The notes beneath the pieces are model-generated. The model saw only the letters and a program-made list of their open reading frames with translations, had not been told where the DNA came from and searched no databases. This document shows positions 5,230 to 50,012 of a DNA stretch of 64,000 bases, one piece after another (the stretch's first letter is position 1; every line of letters begins with the position of its first letter). The DNA lies in NCBI GenBank assembly GCA_035631395.1, contig DASQIU010000045.1, forward strand, positions 12,521 to 76,520, given 5' to 3'. Position numbers and translations under genes: made by a program. Source of the stretch: Daejeonella sp. Lineage in GTDB: Bacteria; Bacteroidota; Bacteroidia; Sphingobacteriales; Sphingobacteriaceae.

Positions 5230-7386
5230 ATGAGTTATAACGCAATTAAGAAAACATTCGATCTGGGCGATGGCCGTATGATCGAAATTGAAACCGGTAA
5301 ATTGGCTAAGCAGGCCGATGGATCGGTAGTGGTAAAAATGGGCGATACTATGTTGCTGGCCACCGTAGTTTCTACTGTAGGAGCTAAGCCTGGCGTTGAT
5401 TTTTTACCCTTATCGGTAGATTATCAAGAAAAATATGCATCTACCGGTCGTATTCCCGGTGGTTTTTTACGCCGCGAAGCCCGTCTGTCTGACTATGAGG
5501 TGTTAATTTCCCGTCTGGTTGACCGTGCTTTGCGTCCGATGTTTCCCGAAGATTACCATGCCGATACTCAGGTGATGATTTCCCTGATCTCTGCTGATAA
5601 AAATATTATGCCCGACTGTCTGGCCGGATTAGCTGCTTCGGCTGCTATCGCCGTTTCAGATATTCCTTTTAACGGACCGATCTCTGAGGTTCGCGTAGCC
5701 AAAATTGATGGCAAACTGGTTATCAACCCTTATTTAAATGATCTGGAACGTGCTTCTTTAGAGTTTTTAGTAGCCGGTACCGAGCATGATATTGTGATGG
5801 TGGAAGGAGAGGCTAATGAGATTTCTGAAGCTGAAATGGTTGAAGCTATTGAATTTGCCCATAAAGCCATTATTACTCAGGTTCAGGCTCAGAAAGAACT
5901 TGCCGAAATGGTTGGAAAAACTACCAAACGCGAGTACAATCATGAAAGCAGCAATCCTGAATTAAGAGAAAAAGCTTTTGCTGATACTTATGATCAGGTT
6001 TATGCTATTGCTAAATCTGGTTCAACTAAACAGGAGCGTTCTGAGAAATTTGCTCAAATTGAAGAACTATTTATTGCTTCTTTAGGTGAGGAAATATCTG
6101 ATGAAACCAAGTTTTTGGCCAAAAAATACTTCCACGATGTACAATATGATGCTGTTCGGAATCTGATCCTGGATGAAGGAATCCGTTTGGATGGTCGTAA
6201 CTCACGTACCGTACGTCCTATCTGGAGTGAAGTTGGTTATTTACCGGCTGCACACGGATCGTCTGTGTTTACCCGCGGAGAAACCCAATCATTAACTACG
6301 GTTACTTTGGGCGCCAAATCAGATGAGCAGTTAATTGACGGAGCCTTCTTCAACGGTTACCAGAAATTCTTATTGCATTATAACTTCCCTGGATTTTCTA
6401 CCGGAGAGGTTCGCCCTAACCGTGGCGCTGGCCGTCGCGAAATTGGCCATGGTAACTTAGCCATGCGCTCCCTGAAAAAAGTATTGCCTGGGGATGATGA
6501 GAATCCATATACTATTCGTGTAGTATCTGATATTTTAGAGTCTAACGGTTCTTCTTCTATGGCTACCGTTTGTGCCGGAACTTTGGCTCTGATGGATGCA
6601 GGTATTAAAATTAAAGCACCGGTTTCTGGTATTGCCATGGGTTTAATTACCGATGAGAAGACCGGAAAATATGCTATTCTTTCTGATATTTTGGGTGATG
6701 AAGATCATCTGGGCGATATGGACTTTAAAGTTACCGGTACTGAAAAAGGAATTGTAGCTTGCCAAATGGACCTGAAGATCAATGGTTTAAAGTGGGAAGT
6801 GTTAACTGCCGCTTTAGATCAAGCTAAAGAAGCTCGTTTACACATTCTAAACGAGATGAAGAAAACCATCGATATGCCGCGTGAAGATTACAAGCCACAT
6901 GCGCCACGTATTGTTACCCTGAAAATTGATAAAGAATTTATCGGTGCGGTAATTGGACCGGGTGGTAAGATCATCCAGGAAATGCAACGGGAAACCGGCG
7001 CTACCATTGCCATTGAAGAAAAAGATAATCAAGGTATCGTTCAGGTATTTGCCGATAATAAAGAATCCATTGATCAGGCGGTTGCCCGTATCAGAGCCAT
7101 TGCCGCTAAACCGGAAGTAGGCGAGGTGTATGAAGGAAAAGTGAAAACCATTATGCCTTTTGGGGCATTTGTGGAAATCATGCCTGGTAAAGATGGTTTA
7201 TTGCATATCTCTGAAATCGATTGGAAACGCTACGAAAGCATGGAAGGTGTTCTGAACGTAGGCGATATCGTGAAAGTAAAATTACTGGATGTTGATAAAC
7301 AAGGTAAACTGAAATTATCACGTAAAGCTTTAATTCCACGACCTCCAAAAGAAGATCAAAAAAAGGAAGAATCTCCTAAGGAATAA
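5230..7386 (+). CDS. pnp: polyribonucleotide nucleotidyltransferase (PNPase)
   Basis: 718 aa. Two RNase PH domains plus KH and S1 ([20 protein letters not shown]). The rpsO-pnp synteny is conserved. Confidence 0.97.
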
Positions 7387-7403
7387 TTGAGTTTACTCAT
7401 TAA

Positions 7404-7440
7404 AAACCCGCTCGCAGCAATGTTAGAGCGGGTTTTTTAT
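7404..7440 (+). terminator. rho-independent terminator after pnp
   Basis: An 8-bp stem (acccgctc ... gagcgggt) is followed by tttttt. Confidence 0.75.
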
Positions 7441-7462
7441 TTTATAAGATTCCATTGATTAT

Positions 7463-7620
7463 GTTGATTGTCGTCTTTCGTTTGCCGTCTTTCGTCCTTC
7501 GTTCAAACACGCTGAGAAACACAATCCTAAAATCTTTAAATCTTAAAAATCCTAATTCAGACAATTTAAGATAAAATCATTTCGTTCGAATTCGTTTAAT
7601 TCGTGCAAGTAATGTTTTTA
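7463..7620 (+). repeat. composite dispersed intergenic repeat, full copy A
   Basis: Three modules: gttgattgtcgtctttcgtttgccgtctttcgtcc; aatcctaattcagacaattta; attcgtttaattcgtgcaagtaatgttttta. Collinear with the copy at 16255-16424. Confidence 0.7.
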
Positions 7621-7695
7621 TCAATGTGCCATTTTCAATTCAATCGTGTCTTTATTTCCTAAATTTTTTCCTGCTTTTCTTCTTACCTTTGCCGC

Positions 7696-8367
7696 ATGAA
7701 CCACTTAATAGCTCCTTCCGTTTTATCTGCCGATTTTGCTAATCTGCAGCGAGATATAGAAATGATCAACCGTAGTGAAGCCGATTGGTTTCATGTGGAT
7801 ATTATGGACGGGGTGTTTGTGCCCAATATTTCTTTTGGCTTTCCGGTGTTGCGTGCCATTAATCAACATGCTCAAAAACCATTGGACGTGCATTTAATGA
7901 TTGCAGATGCCGATCGCTATTTAGAGGAATTTCAGAAAGCCGGAGCAGCCAATATTACCGTGCATTACGAGGCCTGCACCCACTTACACCGAACCTTGCA
8001 TGCCATTAAGAATTTAGGATGTAAAGCGGGTGTAGCGCTTAATCCACATACTCCGGTGCAGGTATTGGATGATATTATTGAAGATCTGGATTTGGTTTGT
8101 CTGATGTCGGTAAATCCTGGTTTTGGTGGACAGAAATTCATTGAAAATACCTATAAAAAGATCCGGCAACTCAGAGCGATGGCTGCCTCCAGAAACGAAA
8201 GTTTGCTGATCGAAGTAGATGGAGGAGTAGGTAACCAGAATGCTTTAGCCCTGATTGAGGCCGGAGCGAATGTTTTGGTGGCGGGCAACTCGGTTTTCGC
8301 TGCTAAAGATCCAGAACAAGCTATTTCTGCGCTTAAAAATATTCAGCCAGGTATTTTGCAGGCCTAG
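7696..8367 (+). CDS. rpe: ribulose-phosphate 3-epimerase
   Basis: 223 aa. IAPSVLSADFANL, HVDIMDG, MSVNPGFGGQKF and EVDGG are canonical Rpe motifs. Confidence 0.95.
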   Translation: MNHLIAPSVLSADFANLQRDIEMINRSEADWFHVDIMDGVFVPNISFGFPVLRAINQHAQKPLDVHLMIADADRYLEEFQKAGAANITVHYEACTHLHRTLHAIKNLGCKAGVALNPHTPVQVLDDIIEDLDLVCLMSVNPGFGGQKFIENTYKKIRQLRAMAASRNESLLIEVDGGVGNQNALALIEAGANVLVAGNSVFAAKDPEQAISALKNIQPGILQA

Positions 8368-10541: not shown

Positions 10542-10584
10542 GAAAGGATCCTTCATTCTATGAACACATTTTTTCCGCCATATG

Positions 10585-10622
10585 AATTAATGCAAATTCG
10601 TTTACTTCGTGCAATTGGTTTT
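10585..10622 (+). repeat. partial copy (3' module) of the dispersed intergenic repeat
   Basis: gcaaattcgtttacttcgtgcaattggttttt resembles attcgtttaattcgtgcaagtaatgttttt at 7590-7620. Confidence 0.5.
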
Positions 10623-11866
10623 TATTTGATCGTTGCCCCAAAAAACAAATAAGAAATAATAATGGCGGCAATAACTCCGGCTAATTCGGCCAATAAGGCG
10701 CAAGGCAGGGCATGCCTTAATCTTTTAATAGAAACTGATCCGAAATAGACAGCCAGCACATAAAAAGTGGTTTCGGTTGATCCCTGGATTACACAGGCTA
10801 CCCGTGAAGCAAAATCATCGGCTCCTTTGGAATTCATTAAATCAACCATCAGACCGCGGGCGCCGCTGCCGCTTAGCGGTTTCATCATGGCAACCGGTAA
10901 AGCCTGCACAAAACTGGTATCTACACCAAACAGTCCGAAGAAAGAACCAACTCCCTGCACCACATAATCCATGGTGCCCGAAGCACGAAAAACACCTACG
11001 GCAACTAAAATCCCAACTAAATAAGGAATAATTTTTACGGCCACTTCAAAACCTTCCTTAGCGCCTTCTATAAAGGTTTCATAGACATTGATCTTTCGAA
11101 CCAGGGCCAGTACAATAAAGGAGACAATGATACCATACAACATCACATTGCCCGCTACTTTAGAAATGATAGCGATCTGGTCTTGCTGTAGGGTGGAAAA
11201 ATAATAGAGGATGCCACCAATAATGGCAACTAAACCGCCCAAATAAGTAATAATAGTTTTTTGCAGCAGGTTAATTTTTTGATAAACCGCTACCGCGATT
11301 AAGCCGGTAATAGTTGAAAAGAACGTGGCCAGCAAAATGGGAATGAATACATCTGAAGGATCTATGGCACCCGCTTCTTTGCGGTAGGCCATGATACTAA
11401 TGGGGATCAGGGTTAGGCTGGAGGCATTGAGTACCAGAAACATGATCTGGGCATTGGTAGCCGTGTCTTTATTAGGATTCAGCTCCTGCAATTCCTTCAT
11501 GGCTTTTAGCCCCACCGGCGTAGCGGCATTATCCAGCCCCAGCATATTAGCCGAAAAGTTCATTAAAATAGAGCCGTAGGCCGGATGATCTTTGGGAACT
11601 CCAGGGAATAGTTTTTGAAAAAAGGGACCCACAGCCCGGGAAAAAACCTGGATCATACCACCTTTCTCGCCAATTTTCATAATTCCCAGCCAAAAAGCCA
11701 TTAAACCGGCCAGTCCCAACGAAATTTCGGCCCCGGTTTTGGCGCTGTCAAACGTCCCGCTGACTATTTTTTGGAATATATCGTAATCCTGAAAAACAAT
11801 TAATTTAAAAAGGGCAACCGCAAAGGTGGTGAGGAAAAATGCAATCCAGACGTAATTCAGAGCCAT
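10622..11866 (-). CDS. nucleoside recognition domain membrane protein (fused SpmA/SpmB-like)
   Basis: 414 aa and polytopic. The N-terminus MALNYVWIAFFL...GAEISLGLAGLMAFWLGIMKIGEKGG resembles SpmA/SpmB-type proteins. Confidence 0.7.
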   Translation of the reverse strand: MALNYVWIAFFLTTFAVALFKLIVFQDYDIFQKIVSGTFDSAKTGAEISLGLAGLMAFWLGIMKIGEKGGMIQVFSRAVGPFFQKLFPGVPKDHPAYGSILMNFSANMLGLDNAATPVGLKAMKELQELNPNKDTATNAQIMFLVLNASSLTLIPISIMAYRKEAGAIDPSDVFIPILLATFFSTITGLIAVAVYQKINLLQKTIITYLGGLVAIIGGILYYFSTLQQDQIAIISKVAGNVMLYGIIVSFIVLALVRKINVYETFIEGAKEGFEVAVKIIPYLVGILVAVGVFRASGTMDYVVQGVGSFFGLFGVDTSFVQALPVAMMKPLSGSGARGLMVDLMNSKGADDFASRVACVIQGSTETTFYVLAVYFGSVSIKRLRHALPCALLAELAGVIAAIIISYLFFGATIK

Positions 11867-11919
11867 ATATTAGAAATGGAGGTTTTTTTTGTTGTTCGTA
11901 AAAAGTTCAGCCGCGTAAA

Positions 11920-13107
11920 TTAGAAGTTTTTGTTTGTTATTCGGCCATTTTCTATCGATAAAATTGTAGAAAAACCATCTTGAAGTATAAAATCGGCCGG
12001 CTGCTGATGCTCTAAAGGCCGGGTCAGGATGAATTTATAAGAGCTGGCATCTAAAGTTTCATAACCAAAATAGTTTTCCAGGTCCCCCAGATCTTCTACC
12101 AGGTAGGTATAAGAAACAGAACGACGATCATTATTTAACTCCTGCAGCGCAATCAAACCAATATCACTTTGGTAGCTGATGGTTCCTAAATTGATCTGGG
12201 CATTTTTGATCAGGATGTGAAAATGGCGCTTATCATTTTGGGGGATTATTGAGTAATCCGCTTCGGTTTCCTGTTGATAGGTATTATTGGCAATACATTC
12301 TAATCCCGATAGGATGGCCCGGAAGATAAATTTACGAATATGCTGTTTTTCCGGATCATGGGCATAACTGCCTGCTTCGATCAAAATGGTGCTGGTGCCA
12401 GCTGCCTGAAAATTATCGCCAAAGGCCCGGGATTCATACTCATCACTAAATCGGGCGGTATGATTGGGTAAAACCTGTTGCAGCTTTTTATAAGTATAGC
12501 TGATGACTTGCATGGCTTTCTGCCGAACCGGATTTACGGAAACGGCCTCATCAAAAGGAGGGGCCAGTAGAGAAATTGTTGCGGGCAAGCCACTTTTTCC
12601 CGCCGACCAAACCGGACCCTGATCGTGCAGATTAAAGCCAAATTCCGGCTGTATTTCATCCCGGAGTTTACGCAATAAGCGACCTTCAGGACTTTGCTGA
12701 TGCTTAAAATCTCGGTTAATATCTATTCCCTGTGCATTGCGGCGTGTAAAAATCTCAGCTCCATCCGGGTTTACCATGGGTAAGATGTATAAGGTGCAAT
12801 TTTCTAAAATAGCCTGACGCAAGGGATTAAACTCATCATCGGCTACTAAAAAATTGAAAAAATCAAATAAAGCCATGGTTGCTGTTGGCTCATCGCCATG
12901 CATCTGGCTCCATAAAAAAATGCGTTTTTTACCGGTTCCAACTTTCACCAGAGAGATGGAACGTCCTTCTACCGATTGGCCAACCTCCCTTAAATGAAAT
13001 ATTTCCGGATTTAATTTTTTTAATAGATTTTGCAGATCGGCATGCTTGAAAAAACGGTTATTCAGAGCGCTTTCGCGATATTGTTCAAAACGGGTGATTA
13101 TTTCCAT
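11920..13107 (-). CDS. M14-family zinc carboxypeptidase
   Basis: WSQMHGDEPTAT (HxxE zinc site) and MVNPDGAEIFTRRNAQGIDINRDF. Start trimmed to MEIITRF because the track N-terminal extension runs into a dispersed repeat copy. Confidence 0.75.
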   Translation of the reverse strand: MEIITRFEQYRESALNNRFFKHADLQNLLKKLNPEIFHLREVGQSVEGRSISLVKVGTGKKRIFLWSQMHGDEPTATMALFDFFNFLVADDEFNPLRQAILENCTLYILPMVNPDGAEIFTRRNAQGIDINRDFKHQQSPEGRLLRKLRDEIQPEFGFNLHDQGPVWSAGKSGLPATISLLAPPFDEAVSVNPVRQKAMQVISYTYKKLQQVLPNHTARFSDEYESRAFGDNFQAAGTSTILIEAGSYAHDPEKQHIRKFIFRAILSGLECIANNTYQQETEADYSIIPQNDKRHFHILIKNAQINLGTISYQSDIGLIALQELNNDRRSVSYTYLVEDLGDLENYFGYETLDASSYKFILTRPLEHQQPADFILQDGFSTILSIENGRITNKNF

Positions 13108-13126
13108 AACGCCGCTAATGTAGAAA

Positions 13127-13262
13127 TTTGTGAGGACGTTTGTCGTTTTTCGTCCATCCTCTATCACTTTCTCTTATGAATTCGGATACTTCTTGAAATT
13201 CGTTCTTTTTGTCTTATCGACTAAGAATTTGTGTGAATTCGTCTAATTCGGTGTTTATCTCA
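13127..13262 (+). repeat. dispersed intergenic repeat, copy C (5' and 3' modules)
   Basis: Shares the exact 17-mer gtcgtttttcgtccatc with the copy at 16255-16424. Shares gaattcgtctaattcg with the reverse complement of 26775-26792. Confidence 0.65.
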
Positions 13263-13290
13263 TAAAAAAAGGCTGCCTTTTGGGCAGCCC
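13263..13290 (-). terminator. rho-independent terminator after the S9 peptidase gene
   Basis: The minus strand reads gggctgcccaaaaggcagcc followed by ttttttt. Confidence 0.7.
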
Positions 13291-13311
13291 GTGCTATTAA
13301 TATTTGATTTT

Positions 13312-16161
13312 TTATTTATCGGCAGCTTGAGGGGTGGCAATTTCAAAACCCCAGTTACGGCCTTTTTCTGTGGCTGGAACGCCTTTTTCCATCCATACCG
13401 GAGCTGGTTTTCCTTTCAGGTAATGATCAAAAAACTGTTGTTCGCGGATCTGGATATCTTTTCTGTTCTGACGTAAAACCAGGTTATGAGCTTCATTATT
13501 ATAGTTCAGCATCCAAACCGGTTTACTCAGACGGCGCAAGGCAGTGAACATTTCAATACCCTGATACCATGGTACGGCTCCATCGGCATCATTGGCCATA
13601 ATTACTACCGGAGTATTTACATTCGGTAAATGGAATAAAGGTGAGTTTTCGATATATAACTCGGGTTTTTCCCATAAAGTAGCACCAATGCGGCTTTGTG
13701 TTTTCTCATATTGAAACTGACGGTTCATACCAGTTTCCCAACGAATACCACCATACGCCGAAGTCATGTTTACTACCGGAGCGCCGGCCCAGGCTGCAGC
13801 ATACATATTGGTTCGGGTAATGAGGTGCGCTACCTGATAACCGCCCCAGCTTTGACCCTGGATACCGATTTTGCTGCCATCTACCCAAGGATTCTTTTTT
13901 AAGGCTTCTACTCCTGAATTGATAAATTCTTCAGCAGAACGACCCGGATAACCGGTTTCATAGCTGATATCGGGTGTGAAAACCAGGTAACCATTACTCA
14001 CAAAATAAGTGATATTTAAGCGAGATGGAGTAGGCGCCGGAGCCGTATAATTATATAAACCGTCTGATACCTTCTCATAGAAGTAAACGATCATCGGGTA
14101 TTTTTTTGCCGGATCAAAATCCTCAGGTTTATATAAAACACCTTCGGATGTATAGCCTTTTGGCGTAGTCCATTTAACCAGTTCGGCGGTACCCCAGTTG
14201 TAATTGCTTTGCTGTGGGTTGGTGGCGCTTAATTTGGTTTCTTTTTTGAAATCAGCAGAAATGTAAACATCAGGTGAAGCCTGGAAGTTGGATTTTTCAT
14301 AGATCATTACCACTGCATTGCCGGCTTGCTCGGCACGTGTGTAATTGTATTTATCCATGATCACCAGCTCCGGATTTTTCTGATCACTGATGTTCTTTTT
14401 GTACCAGCCATTTTCTTTGGATACGTTATTAAAGGCTTCCAGCCATAAAGGCTTCTGCGAATTAATAAAGCGCTCTTTAGAATTGAGGCTGTTGTATCTG
14501 AAAGTAATTTTCTGAGCTCTGCCTATTCCGTTGGTCAGGTTTTTATGCTGGCCATTTTCCGGGTTGAAGCTCCAGATATCATAACGATCGTAAATCAAAA
14601 CGTTTTGGTCATTTTGAGTCCAACCGGCCTGGCCGTAAGGGCTAGGATCATCGGGTACATCATTATCTTCCTGATAAAACTTGATATCCATGCCGGCATT
14701 TAAATGAACCTGTTTGCCACCTTTTACTGAATAGGCATACCAGTTGCTATTGGCCCGGTCATACCAGGTAACATAGCTTGCATTAGGCGACATGCTGGCA
14801 AAACCACGAACTTTTGAAGCAATTTGTTTGCGACTTCCATCAATGGTAGAAACCAGGTAAATATTCCGTTGGGTAGAACCCGTCCATTGCATTTCTACGC
14901 GGTTGCCAAAATCGGTGCTTGCTAAAGCAAACTCAGCATTTCCTTCATTGCCCAATTGTACATCGGTTACTTGCTCATCGGCCAATTGAATTATTTTGGA
15001 AGAAGCTGCTTTAGGGTAAATTACCGCCATATAGTTGCGCTTCAGATCACGATCCAGGTTTTTCAACTGCATAGGTTGCAGATAATCATCCTTATAGTTC
15101 CAGATATCTACTTTGGCTACTTCAAAATCAACAATGGTGGTGTCTTTAGGCGCCTGAATAGGGGCGGTGCCGAAAAACAGTTTTTCGCCATTTTTGCTGA
15201 AGGAGATTTTTCCATCGCCGCTAATGCTCCATTTGGTTGGCATACCTGAGGTACTGCGGTCGGCAATAACGCGGGCGCTATCTTGTCCGGAGCTGAAATA
15301 ATATAGTTTGTAGAATTTCTGTAAGGCTTTAGCCGGATCCTTTTCTGAAGCAAAGGCTAATTGGCTGCCGGTTTCGTCAAAGGCCAGGTTTTTATACTGA
15401 CCTTTTCCAGAACTGATTTTAGTTAAATGAGCTTTTTCAATATCATAGAGATATAAACCAGGAAGATTTTCAGTGTCTTTTTTGGCTCCGGTGCTTACAA
15501 AGGCAAGCAGTTTGCCATTTTTGCTCAGAATATAATCGGTTACATATTTAAAGGTTTTTTCCTGACCGCTTTTCAGATTGCGAAGTGTCAGATCAGTACC
15601 TTCGGCAGCAGCCGTAGCAGAACCTCCTTCATCATCAGCAAAATAGAAATCAGCATCTACTTTACCTTCCGCTTTCTTCTTAGCGGTATCGGCCGCAGGA
15701 GCTTTATCCAATAAATAAGCCACATAGCCGGAAGCTTTTTCAGGTAGTTTGTATGATTTTACCCGACCAACTTTCCAAACGGCGCTGGTTTCCAGACTTA
15801 CAATGCCCAGACTGTCTTTGGGCATATTGTCGGCTTTGGCTTTTTTAATTTTCGCCTGACGGGTTTCCTTATAAAAAGGCTTAATCAGGAAAACAGAGAA
15901 TTTAGAATCTTCTGTAAACTGAGCAGCAGGAACCCGGGGAACTGTTAAGGACTTTTTGTTTTTCAGGTTCGAAATAACCAGTCGGGCATCGCCTTCCTGC
16001 TGAGCTACGGAATACATAGCCCAAAGTCCGTCATTGCTGATTCGTTTGCTGGCAATGCTTTCCCAGCTATCGTAAACTGAATGATCTAAAGGCTTCTTCG
16101 ACTGGGCTAATACCCAAGCCGGTAAAGAAGCGATTGTGAAAAAAAGTATGAGTTTTCTCAT
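13312..16161 (-). CDS. S9-family serine peptidase with N-terminal beta-propeller region
   Basis: 949 aa. Signal peptide; nucleophile elbow GIQGQSWGGYQ; C-terminal alpha/beta hydrolase region with DADGAVPW and EAHNL. Confidence 0.85.
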   Translation of the reverse strand: MRKLILFFTIASLPAWVLAQSKKPLDHSVYDSWESIASKRISNDGLWAMYSVAQQEGDARLVISNLKNKKSLTVPRVPAAQFTEDSKFSVFLIKPFYKETRQAKIKKAKADNMPKDSLGIVSLETSAVWKVGRVKSYKLPEKASGYVAYLLDKAPAADTAKKKAEGKVDADFYFADDEGGSATAAAEGTDLTLRNLKSGQEKTFKYVTDYILSKNGKLLAFVSTGAKKDTENLPGLYLYDIEKAHLTKISSGKGQYKNLAFDETGSQLAFASEKDPAKALQKFYKLYYFSSGQDSARVIADRSTSGMPTKWSISGDGKISFSKNGEKLFFGTAPIQAPKDTTIVDFEVAKVDIWNYKDDYLQPMQLKNLDRDLKRNYMAVIYPKAASSKIIQLADEQVTDVQLGNEGNAEFALASTDFGNRVEMQWTGSTQRNIYLVSTIDGSRKQIASKVRGFASMSPNASYVTWYDRANSNWYAYSVKGGKQVHLNAGMDIKFYQEDNDVPDDPSPYGQAGWTQNDQNVLIYDRYDIWSFNPENGQHKNLTNGIGRAQKITFRYNSLNSKERFINSQKPLWLEAFNNVSKENGWYKKNISDQKNPELVIMDKYNYTRAEQAGNAVVMIYEKSNFQASPDVYISADFKKETKLSATNPQQSNYNWGTAELVKWTTPKGYTSEGVLYKPEDFDPAKKYPMIVYFYEKVSDGLYNYTAPAPTPSRLNITYFVSNGYLVFTPDISYETGYPGRSAEEFINSGVEALKKNPWVDGSKIGIQGQSWGGYQVAHLITRTNMYAAAWAGAPVVNMTSAYGGIRWETGMNRQFQYEKTQSRIGATLWEKPELYIENSPLFHLPNVNTPVVIMANDADGAVPWYQGIEMFTALRRLSKPVWMLNYNNEAHNLVLRQNRKDIQIREQQFFDHYLKGKPAPVWMEKGVPATEKGRNWGFEIATPQAADK

Positions 16162-46004: not shown

Positions 46005-46239
46005 TGTGAAATTTAGGCTGCAAATATAAGCAGTTTTAGCAGGATTGAGTATGGGAATGAGGATTGGGACACGGGGCTGACAGAAAATTGGATGGGGAGA
46101 TTTCTTTTTGGATTAAAATGGTAGAAATAAGATTCACGAACTGGAAATATTTAACAATACATTTCCATAAATTAATTTGGAATTTAAAATATTGCGTCTA
46201 TTTTAGAGTTACAAGCAACCGTAAGACACCGAAATAGTA

Positions 46240-46812
46240 ATGACAGACGACATAATAAATTCAATAAGTAAGACTGCAAAACTTGTAAAGGACTTAAATA
46301 GCTTACCCGACGAGCAAGGAATATACGCTTTGTACATTGACAAGTCAACTGATTTAGGGAAATTTGGAAATCCCGGACAATTAATATATGTCGGTATATC
46401 CGAGAAAAGTTTAGTAAGTAGAGGCATCGAAACACATTTCAAAACTGGACAAACTGGGTGGTCAACATTAAGACGTTCAATTGGAGCTATTTTGAAATCG
46501 AAGTTGAAATTATCAGCGCATAAAAGAGACTTAAATCCTAAAAAACTTCGTGCTGACAAATACAAATTTGATGAAAAGGGTGAAGTAAGACTTACTGAAT
46601 GGATGATTGAAAACTTGAAAATGGGTTTTTGGTCAACATCAAATCCGTTAACGAAAGCAAAACTAAGAGACGAGGAGGAAAAAGTAATTATCAACCTCAA
46701 ACCAAGTTTAGACCTTGATAAAAGGACAAAACGTTTAAATCCTTTAGCACAGGAACTTGACAACCTTAGAGAAATTTGCAGACAGGAGGTTAAAAATAAT
46801 AACCAGATATGA
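46240..46812 (+). CDS. GIY-YIG nuclease family protein
   Basis: 190 aa. GIYALY then IYVGIS (the GIY / YxG pair), conserved Arg in STLRRSIG, acidic residue in LTEWMIENL, and EEKVIINLKPSLDLD (the E...N region), in the canonical order. Confidence 0.65.
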   Translation: MTDDIINSISKTAKLVKDLNSLPDEQGIYALYIDKSTDLGKFGNPGQLIYVGISEKSLVSRGIETHFKTGQTGWSTLRRSIGAILKSKLKLSAHKRDLNPKKLRADKYKFDEKGEVRLTEWMIENLKMGFWSTSNPLTKAKLRDEEEKVIINLKPSLDLDKRTKRLNPLAQELDNLREICRQEVKNNNQI

Positions 46813-46972
46813 AACGGGGTTTGAGCTGCTAGTAACATTGCATTGGCAATAGGCGGGCTGACGTGCTACTATGAAACTTTTAACTAAATTTAAAACCTCA
46901 GTCAATAAATCCCACCTATCACTAATACGGTCGTTAGTGGTCATGTTTTAACGACAATTTTGCATCCACAGA

Positions 46973-47719
46973 ATGAACAAAATGAAATTGACACCTGAAC
47001 AATTTGTATTACTTGAAAATTCTTATTTAAGACATTTTCCAACCTACATTCCAGACGAAATATTTCAGGACTACAGAACTATAATTGAGTACAAAGACCT
47101 TATTAGGTATGCAAAACCTGACAAGCGAATTTTAAATCATCTTCTTGATATTGTTATTGATAAAATAAAAAGCAAGCAACGTTTTCAAAAAAACACTTTT
47201 ATAAAACTAATTCGCTGGCAATGTGACAATACGTTTATTGACAGCACAACTTCTGATAAATTATTTTTCGTTTTCAAATCGTTAATCAATGAAGTAAACG
47301 AGACAATTGCTTGGAGTTTAAGCGTGACAATTAAGGACATTGAACTTTCACAGGAAAACATTGACTGGCTTATAGATAATTATGAAATTTCAGAACACTT
47401 ACAAAACAGATTACTCCGATATCCTAAACCAAACGAGGCAATTACAACTTGGTGCGACCAACGACTGAAGAAAAAAGACCTAGACAATCGTTTGTCTGAA
47501 CTAATTGGACTAAGGTTAAACTTTGACACCGATCTTACTTTCAAAGATAAAACCAGTTTGATTTGGGGTATCCATTATTCCAAGCTCACAGTCAAAAAGA
47601 AAAAAGAATTGCTCCTTAAACATTTGACGGGTGACAATTTTGAAGAGCTTATAAAGATTTGCGAAAAGAATAATTTTACAGATGTCATTTCGCAACTTTA
47701 TAATGACATTGACAAATAA
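46973..47719 (+). CDS. hypothetical all-helical (repeat-like) protein
   Basis: 248 aa, very AT-rich codons. Successive helix-pair-like segments of ~40 aa. I recognise no catalytic motif or family. Confidence 0.5.
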   Translation: MNKMKLTPEQFVLLENSYLRHFPTYIPDEIFQDYRTIIEYKDLIRYAKPDKRILNHLLDIVIDKIKSKQRFQKNTFIKLIRWQCDNTFIDSTTSDKLFFVFKSLINEVNETIAWSLSVTIKDIELSQENIDWLIDNYEISEHLQNRLLRYPKPNEAITTWCDQRLKKKDLDNRLSELIGLRLNFDTDLTFKDKTSLIWGIHYSKLTVKKKKELLLKHLTGDNFEELIKICEKNNFTDVISQLYNDIDK

Positions 47720-47930
47720 AAAATATAGAGATTGGCACAACGGAAAGTGAAGAACAATAACAGGTATTTCGCAAAAAGCTGGTTCATTGCTTAAATGAAG
47801 CAATGTGCTTCGTATCAAGTTTCGTACTTCGAAATTCGCTTCTTCGCCAAGCGCCAAAACATTAGTGGTAAGCTATAACACACAAATCTCCTAAATCGAA
47901 AAAAACGAAAATCAAACTAACAACTAGAAT

Positions 47931-48386
47931 ATGCTGACACTTTTCCCTGACGAAAACATTATTACAGAATCTGATGGACAACGGGTTGTTTTAACAACAC
48001 ACAGAATCTGCTATGAACACAAAGAATGGGGTCGTTCTTACAACCAAAGTATAATGTTGGAACACATAACATCTTGTGAAAACCACAGTGTAAGTAGATA
48101 TTGGCTTTTAGTCATAGCAGGACTTTTAGTAGTTTTTGGATTTTTTAGTGCTACAAATGGAAATTCAGAACTATTGGGTGTTTGTGGATTATTTGCTGTA
48201 GGACTTGGACTTTTATTTTGGTTTACCCGAAAAAGTTTGGTTGTAGTAGGCTCACCAAGTACCAAAATGGTAATTAACGTAACAGGTATGACTAGGGACA
48301 AAGTTTTATCATTTATTAATAGAATCGAGCAAACAAAACACAAACGGCTGCTGACATTAAATAACAAACAAGTCGGACAAAATTAG
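47931..48386 (+). CDS. hypothetical small membrane protein: beta-rich module interrupted by a TM hairpin
   Basis: 151 aa. The N-terminus VVLTTHRICYE...IMLEHITSCE is followed by two TM helices (YWLLVIAGLLVVFGFF, LLGVCGLFAVGLGLLFWF). It ends with SLVVVGSPSTKMVINVTGMTRDKVLSFINRIEQ. The overall shape is like a bacterial PH-like fold with an inserted hairpin. Confidence 0.5.
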   Translation: MLTLFPDENIITESDGQRVVLTTHRICYEHKEWGRSYNQSIMLEHITSCENHSVSRYWLLVIAGLLVVFGFFSATNGNSELLGVCGLFAVGLGLLFWFTRKSLVVVGSPSTKMVINVTGMTRDKVLSFINRIEQTKHKRLLTLNNKQVGQN

Positions 48387-48445: not shown

Positions 48446-48862
48446 TCACCCCACCAAATACCTCTCAAAAAAATCTTTACAATTCAGTACCTCAATCTCT
48501 GAAAAATAGAAATCCTGTATATCTTCAGTCAGAATGCAGGAGCAGTTTTGTTCCAGGGCAGCATAATATTCCAGGCCATCTTCAAAATTGTGTATTTGTT
48601 TGTTGGCCAAAGTGTTTTGTACGCTTTGGGCAGAACCCGGAGCAATTTGTATATGCCGGCAAAGAATATCTATTTTATTTTTAGCACTTGATTTTTGCTT
48701 TTTTTGGGCAAAATAAAAGGCATTGGCCAAACAAAGAGGAGAGGTGTATAATTCGAATTTGGGATGCTGGGCTAAGCTTAAAATACGAGATGAATAAGTA
48801 AACAAAGGATATTCTTTGTTTAGTACGGATACCAGGATATTGGCATCTAAAAATAACTTCAT
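48446..48862 (-). CDS. PIN-domain toxin (VapC-like)
   Basis: MKLFLDANIL (first acidic residue), then EDGLEYYAAL and ILTEDIQDF. Start trimmed to the ATG, 6 nt inside the track ORF. Confidence 0.8.
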   Translation of the reverse strand: MKLFLDANILVSVLNKEYPLFTYSSRILSLAQHPKFELYTSPLCLANAFYFAQKKQKSSAKNKIDILCRHIQIAPGSAQSVQNTLANKQIHNFEDGLEYYAALEQNCSCILTEDIQDFYFSEIEVLNCKDFFERYLVG

Positions 48863-48868
48863 CGGCAA

Positions 48869-49129
48869 TTATTTTTTAGCATTAAAAAACTCATCTTTTA
48901 GAGTTTTCCTGGAGGTTTTTCTGGCTCTTTTATATTCTACTTCGCCCTCGGCAACTTGAGAAACCCAATCAGAAATGGGGAAATCTTCCAAACTTTTGTA
49001 CGAATGGTTGGTAACCTGTTTCAGTAGATGCTCAATTAAACGCGATAAGCTGATGTGATTATCCGCGGCGTATTTTTTGGCTCTCTGAATAATATCCCGG
49101 TTAAAACTTAGAGTGATTTTACTATCCAT
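48869..49129 (-). CDS. antitoxin-like RHH protein (DUF6364-type)
   Basis: MDSKITLSFNRDIIQRAKKYAADNHISLSRLIEHLLKQV is the usual pattern of the small partner found upstream of Bacteroidota PIN genes. Its stop lies 6 nt before the PIN ATG. Confidence 0.65.
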   Translation of the reverse strand: MDSKITLSFNRDIIQRAKKYAADNHISLSRLIEHLLKQVTNHSYKSLEDFPISDWVSQVAEGEVEYKRARKTSRKTLKDEFFNAKK

Positions 49130-49262
49130 GACTAATTCCTCCTTATTCAAAAATTATTACACTAATATACGTAAAGCTAAAATAAACTACACGTATAAAA
49201 CAAAATATTTTTTTAGTGATTTTCTTGCTATATGGCTTCTTAATAAATCTAAAAAAATCGAA

Positions 49263-49700
49263 ATGAGTGTACAGGAAATTGACCACTTAACCGAGCGTTT
49301 TTACCAGTGTGTTAGCTTTAATGCCGAGCATTATCCTGACTTTGATCTATTGGAAGAACTCTTTTACGGTTCTGGCAAGCTGATCAATAATAATTTTGAG
49401 CAGCCCAGCGATTTTGACGTACAGAGCTTTGTTCACGCCCTGATGATCCAAATCGAGGCGGGGAATGCTACCCATTTTGCTCAACAGGAAATCTCAGATC
49501 GGACTGAAGTTTTTGGCACCATGGCCCAACGTATCAGCGTGTATGAATACAATACCGTTGCCCATCCGGGCAAGAATTGGAAAAAGGGTGTTAATTTTAT
49601 CCAATATGTTTACAGCGATGGAAAATGGCTGATTGCTTCCATGATTTGGAAAGATGAAGGCCCCGATTTACCTATTCCTAAAGAATATCTGGATTTATAA
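49263..49700 (+). CDS. hypothetical protein, NTF2/SnoaL-like fold suspected
   Basis: 145 aa from MSVQEIDHLTERFYQCVSF. The C-terminal YVYSDGKWLIASMIWKDE is typical of DUF4440/NTF2-like proteins. The track ORF extends upstream to 49113 into the antitoxin gene. Confidence 0.45.
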   Translation: MSVQEIDHLTERFYQCVSFNAEHYPDFDLLEELFYGSGKLINNNFEQPSDFDVQSFVHALMIQIEAGNATHFAQQEISDRTEVFGTMAQRISVYEYNTVAHPGKNWKKGVNFIQYVYSDGKWLIASMIWKDEGPDLPIPKEYLDL

Positions 49701-49746: not shown

Positions 49747-50012
49747 CTGGTTGATTGTTTGCAAATTTTATCTTTCTGCGTCCTTATCTGCGCCTATCAG
49801 CGTAATCGGCGGGAAATGGAGAGCCAATTAATTAGCCCGCAGATCTAGCGAATTAACGCTGATTGTTCCGCAGATTTTACTTTCTGCGTTCTTATCTGCG
49901 CATATCAGCGCAATCTGCGGGAGAAGGAAAGCCGATTATTTAGCCCGCAGATCTCGCGAATTAACGCTGATTGTTCAGCAGATTTTCCTTCTTCGCAGCG
50001 TAATCTGTGATA
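49747..50012. repeat. 108-bp tandem repeat, about 2.5 copies
   Basis: The unit beginning tttctgcg at 49773 recurs at 49881. Each unit contains imperfect internal inverted repeats (atcagcg.aatc.gcggg ... cccgcagatct.gcgaattaacgctgat). Confidence 0.8.

Follow-up and report, generated by a model that had tools for sequence, protein, structure and literature searches.

Three adjacent genes of Daejeonella sp. are probably separate cassettes in a short, decaying attC-like cluster that lacks an integrase

Three genes and two repeats at the locus

We analysed 64,000 nt of DNA from Daejeonella sp. (assembly GCA_035631395.1, contig DASQIU010000045.1, positions 12,521 to 76,520), referred to below as the window. 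Within it an islet of low GC content, flanked by queE-like and glycosyltransferase genes at GC 0.43-0.44, holds three consecutive genes on the plus strand. A QueE cluster of at least 90% identity points to a host within or close to Mucilaginibacter. ORF1 (46240-46812, 190 aa) is predicted to encode a nuclease of the GIY-YIG_2 family, ORF2 (46973-47719, 248 aa) a protein that is modelled as an alpha-solenoid and belongs to an undescribed family, and ORF3 (47931-48386, 151 aa) a putative PH-like domain split by a transmembrane hairpin. The genes, their coordinates and the gaps of 160 nt between ORF1 and ORF2 and of 211 nt between ORF2 and ORF3 are as given in a preliminary description of this DNA, which had also recognized the adjoining toxin-antitoxin pair. 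The pair is PIN_3 and DUF6364/ribbon-helix-helix-like and lies on the opposite strand. That description placed the trio in the most AT-rich part of the window. The low GC content is real (0.346, 0.316 and 0.353 for ORF1, ORF2 and ORF3; 0.404 for the whole window), but the superlative does not hold, as the bin from 47 to 48 kb (0.329) is only near the lowest and the bin from 62 to 63 kb is lower still (0.326).

What had been overlooked is that both spacers carry attC-like repeats. Site 1 (46825-46944, plus strand, with an R'' box TAAC at 46833-46836 and an R' box GTTA at 46933-46936) closes the putative cassette 1, which extends on the plus strand over 725 nt (46209-46933) and has ORF1 as its cargo. 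The degenerate site 2 (47750-47872, plus strand, R'' box TAAC at 47758-47761 and ATTA at the R' position 47861-47864) belongs to the putative cassette 2 (46934-47861, plus strand, 928 nt), which carries ORF2. Both lengths are typical of integron cassettes. The repeats explain the layout of the trio, that is, genes on the same strand with gaps of 160-211 nt. We suggest that the three genes are probably separately acquired cassettes in a short, decaying and integrase-less attC-like cluster in the queE-glycosyltransferase interval, which resembles a CALIN (cluster of attC sites lacking an integron-integrase).

The three genes are not linked elsewhere

The preliminary description had proposed that nuclease, scaffold and membrane protein form one defence or conflict module. 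Searches with the three window proteins yielded 79 loci around homologues (labelled L0xx below): 37 for ORF1, 19 for ORF2, which represent about 11 independent contexts, and 23 for ORF3. At least 1.5 kb of flanking DNA was available on at least one side in 36 of the 37 ORF1 loci, in all 19 ORF2 loci and in 17 of the 23 ORF3 loci. No two of the three families occur together in any of the 79 loci, and the nearest relatives stand beside other neighbours; the proposal of a single module is thus contradicted. At the DNA level the window is similar to other loci in three separate blocks, 46208-46814 (ORF1), 46933-47755 (ORF2) and 47910/47928-48391 (ORF3), each of which ends no more than about 40 nt from its ORF. 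The absence of linkage and the separate blocks bear out the caveat, made already in the description, that these might be three independent cargo genes.

A scan of PADLOC-DB 2.0 gave no model at E <= 1 for any of the three proteins, and none of them has a homologue among 50,697 phage records. A tblastn search of the window for remnants of the partners seen elsewhere (AlbA_2, TmtA, GmrSD, PIN_8, HNH, HEPN/Toprim, PD-T7-1, kinase and ATPase) found nothing credible. For a single co-functioning defence or conflict system one could cite that the genes are consecutive on one strand, low in GC and next to a toxin-antitoxin pair, and that the ORF1 and ORF2 families are frequent in defence islands. Such a system is nevertheless hardly credible, as the families do not co-occur, each homology block stops at its own ORF, an attC-like site lies between each pair of genes and PADLOC has no match. 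We are almost certain that ORF1, ORF2 and ORF3 are not a functional module; presumably their products act independently, if at all.

A covarying repeat family with cassette-like arrays

A part of the second spacer (47757-47864) is similar to non-coding DNA of unrelated loci. It was the lead to a family of repeats of about 126 nt, which was found by BLAST across the loci and iterative nhmmer searches; an exact-seed search for repeats common to both spacers had given nothing useful. The copies (about 105-142 nt) run from TAAC over a long stem to GTTA and lie on the gene strand in all of 11 independent loci. In L078 six copies within 7 kb divide units of one or two genes, and pairs of copies bracket a GIY-YIG+AlbA_2 unit in L014 and a GYF_2+ORF3-like unit in L077.

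The structure of the repeat was tested, and the covariance model R2 derived, with 14 copies from arrays and with the window copies excluded. The TAAC/GTTA core together with a long-range stem of 16 bp has 84.8% of its cells paired and compensatory changes in 19 of 24 pairs. Its covariation score is 0.50 compared with 0.175 in shuffles, none of which reaches the observed value (0 of 500), and drops to 0.10 or less when the partners are slid. For the 16-bp stem alone 90.6% of the cells are paired, 15 of the 16 pairs show compensatory change and again none of 500 shuffles reaches the observed score. Of the 14 copies, 13-14 retain the AAC/GTT triplets, and the bottom strands of array copies fold into a single long hairpin with z-scores from -2.3 to -4.0. 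An asymmetric internal loop (2 vs 6 nt) separates the R and L helices, three 1x1 mismatches interrupt the stem, and the loop region, which spans about 74 alignment columns, is poorly conserved with length differences of 16-35 nt. Published descriptions of attC sites (PMC4889954) list R and L boxes, the conserved triplets AAC/GTT and a terminal structure of 20-100 nt that is variable; with its R and L boxes, its AAC/GTT and its variable loop the repeat agrees with them.

Run unfiltered over both strands of the 64 kb, R2 gives two significant full-length matches, both on the plus strand and one in each spacer; the next best has E = 0.26. Site 1 scores 49.1 bits (E = 2.9e-10, two non-standard pairs) and site 2 scores 56.7 bits (E = 4e-12), and both cover the full model length. 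The two sites are 806 nt apart on the same strand.

We also considered that the genes form an ordinary islet at a recombination hotspot and that the repeats are elements of another kind, either similar to miniature inverted-repeat transposable elements (MITEs) or repetitive extragenic palindromes, or terminators, insulators or structured RNA. The covariation is equally compatible with an RNA structure, an integrase was not found, and the window copies are degenerate with R boxes off the canonical consensus. On the other hand, the constant strand in 11 independent loci and the periodic layout of repeat, gene and repeat are not what such elements lead one to expect. The terminal repeats of MITEs should be conserved in sequence, whereas the copies covary, and a scan of the region from 45 to 51 kb against Rfam gave no match at E <= 1. 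Given also the exact breakpoints described next, we regard an origin of this kind as rather unlikely.

Probable cassette boundaries at G|TT

The left cassette junction (46208-46212, plus strand) reads G|TTAC, and the crossover would lie between G46208 and T46209. Left of 46208 the DNA is unrelated to any attC copy, and at this very point the ORF1 block begins to be homologous to L014, L078 and L079. In the alignment the window reads TATTTTAGAG|TTACAAGCAACCGTAAGACACCGA where three arrays have attC...CG|TTAC(A/C)AGCAACCGTAGGACACCGA, and its ORF1 block opens at the same nucleotide as the block of L078 and L079 (TATTTTAGAG|TTACAAGCAACCG). The latter two loci have in common a 1.7-kb GIY-YIG+AlbA_2 block which is 99.94% identical and starts with G|TTACCAGC at R', while the DNA upstream is unrelated. 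A nearly identical cassette that breaks exactly at G|TT argues against a MITE, a terminator or a structured RNA as the origin of the repeats.

The same holds for the 5′ end of the GIY-YIG cassette. This end (GTTACAAGC) and the R'' box (GCTTGTAAC) in the repeat which closes that cassette are reverse complements of each other, and such a match to its own R'' box is predicted for a cassette that has been circularised. In the window the 5′ flank of site 1, GCTGCTAGTAAC, resembles the GCAGCTTGTAAC of the attC that lies behind the GIY-YIG cassette of L014 and L078 and is nearly complementary to the cassette 5′ end. The ORF2 cassette opens at GTTAGTGG both in the window and in L010-13, which has the closest ORF2 homologue, and in both a repeat copy lies about 35 nt past the stop codon of the ORF2-family gene. 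The ORF1 and ORF2 homology blocks both open at a GTTA motif.

A homologue of ORF3 in L077 (88% identical) is preceded by a GYF_2 gene, and the pair lies between two attC copies. The homology of the window to L077 stops 5 nt past the ORF3 stop codon. ORF3 thus looks cassette-derived as well.

ORF1, a GIY-YIG_2 protein

ORF1 matches the Pfam family GIY_YIG_2 (PF20815) with 69.6 bits (E = 3.8e-19, cutoff 22.4), well above the threshold. Among 23 homologues the positions G27, Y29, Y50, G52, R61, H66, R78, R79, E146 and N167 vary hardly or not at all, with the catalytic Y29, Y50, R61, E146 and N167 invariant throughout, as expected for the GIY, YIG, Arg, Glu and Asn positions of the family. The full set of GIY-YIG motifs reported in the preliminary description is therefore present, and judged by its conserved residues ORF1 is likely to be a catalytically intact nuclease. 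It is a stand-alone protein of about 190 aa without a recognisable DNA-binding domain, and sequence searches detected no solved structure for it.

Relatives of ORF1 frequently stand first in a tight pair of genes whose second member varies; the usual partners are AlbA_2, TmtA and GmrSD-type genes, all of which, unlike in the relatives, are absent beside ORF1. AlbA_2 is the partner in L014 (4183-5915), L015 (10001-11718), L023 (9884-11684), L024 (10001-11722) and L078 and L079 (both 6001-7733). In these six loci the second gene encodes a Schlafen/AlbA_2 protein of 374-386 aa, the gaps range from -4 to +3 nt and the nucleases are 47-78% identical to ORF1; those at 75-78% identity overlap the Schlafen/AlbA_2 gene by 4 nt. 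Neither protein of the pair matches PADLOC. A single cassette bounded by two repeat copies contains the pair in L014 and in L078, and in L079 a repeat lies upstream of the pair and the locus ends within the AlbA_2 gene. The translationally coupled genes are a candidate two-gene system. No remnant of AlbA_2 was found in the window by tblastn.

Other relatives stand next to known defence genes. In L022 (10575-13745) and L025 (10632-13841) Tiamat TmtA (E from 1e-212 to 1e-226) lies directly downstream of the GIY_YIG_2 homologue, in L028-L030 (about 10580-13850) the homologue is followed by a GmrSD_N/DUF7834 and a GmrSD_N/GmrSD_C gene, and type III restriction-modification genes are found in the same islands as these TmtA and GmrSD loci. 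A metagenome-assembled genome (MAG) of the Solirubrobacteraceae has two GIY_YIG_2 paralogues 6.4 kb apart (L032, 10001-10477 and 16900-17349). More distantly related proteins (32-35% identity) were found on 19 plasmids, from Actinomycetota, Clostridium and Ancylobacter; one of them, a 281-aa protein on the Paenarthrobacter ureafaciens plasmid NZ_CP101181.1 (L080, 40888-41733), is encoded near mobC, a relaxase and a zeta toxin.

ORF2, a helical family of defence islands

The homologues of ORF2 point to M4 (46982) as the real start, which gives a protein of 245 aa. Its AlphaFold2 model (predicted local distance difference test, pLDDT, 94.8) is an alpha-solenoid of 16 helices, in agreement with the all-helical fold assigned to it previously. 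It is not an orphan, as had been thought: the family comprises 60 clusters at the 90% identity level and 294 at the 50% level. Pfam, PADLOC, NCBIfam and PHROG contain no match and neither do the sequences of the PDB; a fold search of the PDB and of viral models gave nothing significant (best E = 0.07, TM-score <= 0.42, generic ARM/HEAT/TPR). About half of the best 150 of the 294 clusters are a long form of about 340-380 aa.

The relatives of ORF2 (L001-L013 and L071-L076) are almost always found beside defence genes of varying type. The neighbours include PD-T7-1 with HipA and CBASS, Lamassu and CBASS within an integrative and conjugative element, MNT with HEPN_Toprim_N, a PD-T4-6/mad6-like kinase, HNH_5, PIN_8 with BREX, type I restriction-modification with Abi_C, SIR2 and an AAA_15/21 ATPase; PIN_8 and BREX are those that lie downstream of a homologue with 89% identity. 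On a Paraburkholderia caribensis megaplasmid a homologue of 30% identity is followed by a 575-aa metallophosphoesterase with a gap of 0 nt. Judged by the company they keep, the relatives appear to form a helical family that has no earlier description and is nearly confined to defence islands, and ORF2 may be a solenoid of the protein-binding type which tracks such islands.

Some of these neighbours abut the ORF2 relative closely, among them HEPN_Toprim_N (28 nt), the AAA_15/21 ATPase (10 nt) and the Ser/Thr kinase (60 nt) as well as HNH_5, PIN_8 and the Paraburkholderia metallophosphoesterase (0 nt). ORF2 could then be the constant part of a two-gene system whose effectors are exchangeable, the effector in the window being the GIY-YIG nuclease encoded upstream. 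We consider this very unlikely, since several of the neighbours (PD-T7-1, the PD-T4-6-like kinase) are known to function by themselves, and the orientation and side of the neighbour vary. In the best 150 of the 294 clusters neither fusions nor added Pfam domains were found. None of the 37 ORF1-family loci contains an ORF2 homologue, and in the window an attC-like site separates the two genes.

As relatives of ORF1 and of ORF2 are found beside many defence systems, these two families are residents of defence islands, each singly. Of the defence-island look that the preliminary description saw in the trio, this much stands, and it extends to these two families only. Their assignment is by association, and for the ORF2 family no model exists in Pfam, PADLOC or PHROG. 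Any defence role of the three proteins is putative.

ORF3, a putative PH-like membrane protein

The model of ORF3 (pLDDT 82) has five strands, a transmembrane helical hairpin (58-75 and 79-99), two further strands and a C-terminal helix, and the beta-rich protein interrupted by a hairpin that had been foreseen is thereby recovered. The top Foldseek match is the bacterial PH domain 3dcx (probability 1.00, E = 7.8e-3, TM-score 0.61 when normalised to the target); the PH-like domain of Lam6 is second and the GLUE domain of Vps36 has rank 20. The seven strands and the C-terminal helix are as in bacterial PH domains (DUF1696/bPH, 3dcx) and in eukaryotic GRAM and GLUE domains, whereas the two-helix hairpin inserted between strands 5 and 6 sets ORF3 apart from the bacterial PH domains. 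In Pfam there are only sub-threshold hits to Vps36 and DUF6232, and no bPH family or PDB chain was matched at the sequence level. Going by the model, ORF3 may be a membrane-anchored PH-like protein. The neighbours of its relatives are mixed (SLATT_5, Shedu SduA, PKD, PfkB). One metagenome contig carries two diverged paralogues of the family 2.3 kb apart (L056, 1008-1445 and 3768-4208).

Other features of the islet

The minus-strand genes next to the trio encode a PIN_3 toxin (48446-48868, Pfam PIN_3, 49.8 bits, GC 0.366) and a DUF6364/RHH-like antitoxin (48869-49150, Pfam DUF6364, 67.3 bits, GC 0.365), which has additional weak RelB/ParD and Arc-like matches. The genes abut at 48868/48869 with zero gap, and by family and arrangement, which are those of type II systems, we assign them as a type II toxin-antitoxin pair of the same low-GC islet. 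The last gene of the islet is a plus-strand ORF of 195 aa (49113-49700, GC 0.372) without any family match in the profile libraries scanned; at its greatest length it overlaps the beginning of the antitoxin gene, which lies on the opposite strand, and the true start is probably further downstream. The PIN gene, the antitoxin gene and the 195-aa ORF of the window are absent from all 79 homologue loci.

At the right edge of the islet, between the stop codons of the 195-aa ORF and of the glycosyltransferase gene, two tandem 108-nt copies (49752-49967) are 83% identical and rich in ATCTGCG/CGCAGAT inverted motifs. The motif GCGAATTAACGCTGATTGTTC is confined to these two copies, and R2 has no significant match there. 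A scan for sigma-70 promoters and terminators, a method ill-suited to Bacteroidota, gave counts close to those of shuffled DNA (terminators about 1.8 standard deviations above). In a weak motif scan the Bacteroidota -7 motif (TAnnTTTG) was not enriched, with no instance on the plus strand between 45434 and 49391.

Discussion

We take the spacer repeats to be probably recombination sites of the integron type. Several observations, however, weigh against this and against the cassette origin of the trio. There are only two sites in the window and both fold poorly: site 1 folds only partly, and site 2, with five broken pairs, an ATT instead of GTT and a loop that lacks 19 nt present in L079 and L021, no longer forms the long hairpin. 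Detection rests on the purpose-built family model R2 and not on the general attC model of IntegronFinder. The R-box consensus, (c)ATAAC/GTTA(y), fits RYYYAAC/GTTRRRY only loosely. The R2 scan found no attC-like site of its own for ORF3 in the window, and nine of the about 11 contexts of ORF2 homologues do not adjoin the repeat family. A comparison of L078 with L014 shows the downstream attC diverging just past R'' and not at R', which a single canonical exchange would not yield. The 64 kb contain no tyrosine-recombinase motif and no tblastn match to an integrase, and no integron integrase was found in any array-bearing locus. Finally, genome surveys found integrons to be rare, with almost none, in Bacteroidota (PMC9024848).

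Elsewhere Bacteroidota are named among the phyla having integrons (PMC8618304). A CALIN is a group of at least two clustered attC sites with no integrase nearby (IntegronFinder 2, PMC9024848), and the window has two such sites, as called by R2 and not by the IntegronFinder model. CALINs of two sites are common, and they may stem from the insertion of cassettes at GWT sites of the genome with later erosion of attC (bioRxiv 10.1101/2022.09.11.507474).

A tyrosine recombinase, to which a tblastn search with an IntI1 query served only as a lead, is encoded in L023 (11988-14278). It scores 176.4 bits on TIGR02249 (cutoff 265), above its own XerC/XerD scores, and matches the model in two stretches without the IntI-specific insertion. 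Its gene is divergent to an attC-like repeat at a distance of 89 nt and overlaps an IS91-family transposase gene. Being below the TIGR02249 cutoff and linked to IS91, it was rejected as an IntI. A frameshifted and truncated relative (49-61% identity) lies inside the array region of L079 (2166-2673). One could imagine that the repeats belong to a Bacteroidota-wide cassette-array system that is run by a non-canonical recombinase such as this IntI/Xer-like enzyme of L023 and L079; to us this appears improbable.

We suggest that the cluster arose in the following way. Each unit would have been acquired separately by site-specific recombination, presumably by an integron-type integrase, at the G|TT of a folded hairpin site of about 120 nt. 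The first junction would have formed at a chromosomal GTT site that is not an att site. ORF3 could be a third unit whose own site was lost or never present. By now the array may be decaying, with the GTT and much of the stem of site 2 lost and no integrase in the 64 kb, and the genes would be effectively frozen in place.

The repeats of the Vibrio cholerae superintegron (VCRs) are about 120-130 bp long. With this superintegron and with CALINs the arrays have much in common: short ORFs on the same strand are split by imperfect palindromes of about 105-142 nt, which have AAC...GTT, a long covarying stem and a loop that varies. Cassettes are bounded at G|TT and recur in identical form in separate arrays, a toxin-antitoxin pair lies in the array region, and compact genes of the defence type are among the cargo. 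Unlike them, the arrays described here have no identified IntI, attI (a site whose sequence is not conserved) or Pc promoter, they reside in Bacteroidota and their R-box consensus differs, and the window has but two partly decayed sites. Also similar are the SALINs (single attC sites lacking an integron-integrase) and small CALINs at attG sites described by Loot et al. (bioRxiv 10.1101/2022.09.11.507474), tiny clusters far from an integrase as in the window. The left junction, an ordinary G|TT of the chromosome, agrees with the 5′-GWT-3′ consensus, and the attC apparently erodes, consistent with domestication. That route was demonstrated experimentally for IntI1-3 in E. coli.

There is thus no new three-gene defence system at this locus, and the trio would be an accident of cassette order. 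What emerges is a covarying site family of about 126 nt with cassette arrays in several Bacteroidota, namely this host, MAGs of Chitinophagaceae, Ca. Pollutiaquabacter and soil metagenome contigs. Surveys of genomes had turned up next to no integrons in Bacteroidota. Compact defence genes are known to be stored in integron cassettes (bioRxiv 10.1101/2024.07.02.601686). If the sites are confirmed, the covariance model R2 and the alignment A6 would provide a handle for mining the cassettes of Bacteroidota, the GIY-YIG_2 gene with or without AlbA_2 and the ORF2 family would be candidates for compact defence genes that move as cassettes, and the question would arise which recombinase mobilises them. 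Should a non-canonical recombinase run these arrays after all, their cassettes would represent a reservoir of undescribed defence functions of one or two genes, such as the ORF2 family and the GIY-YIG_2+AlbA_2 pair.

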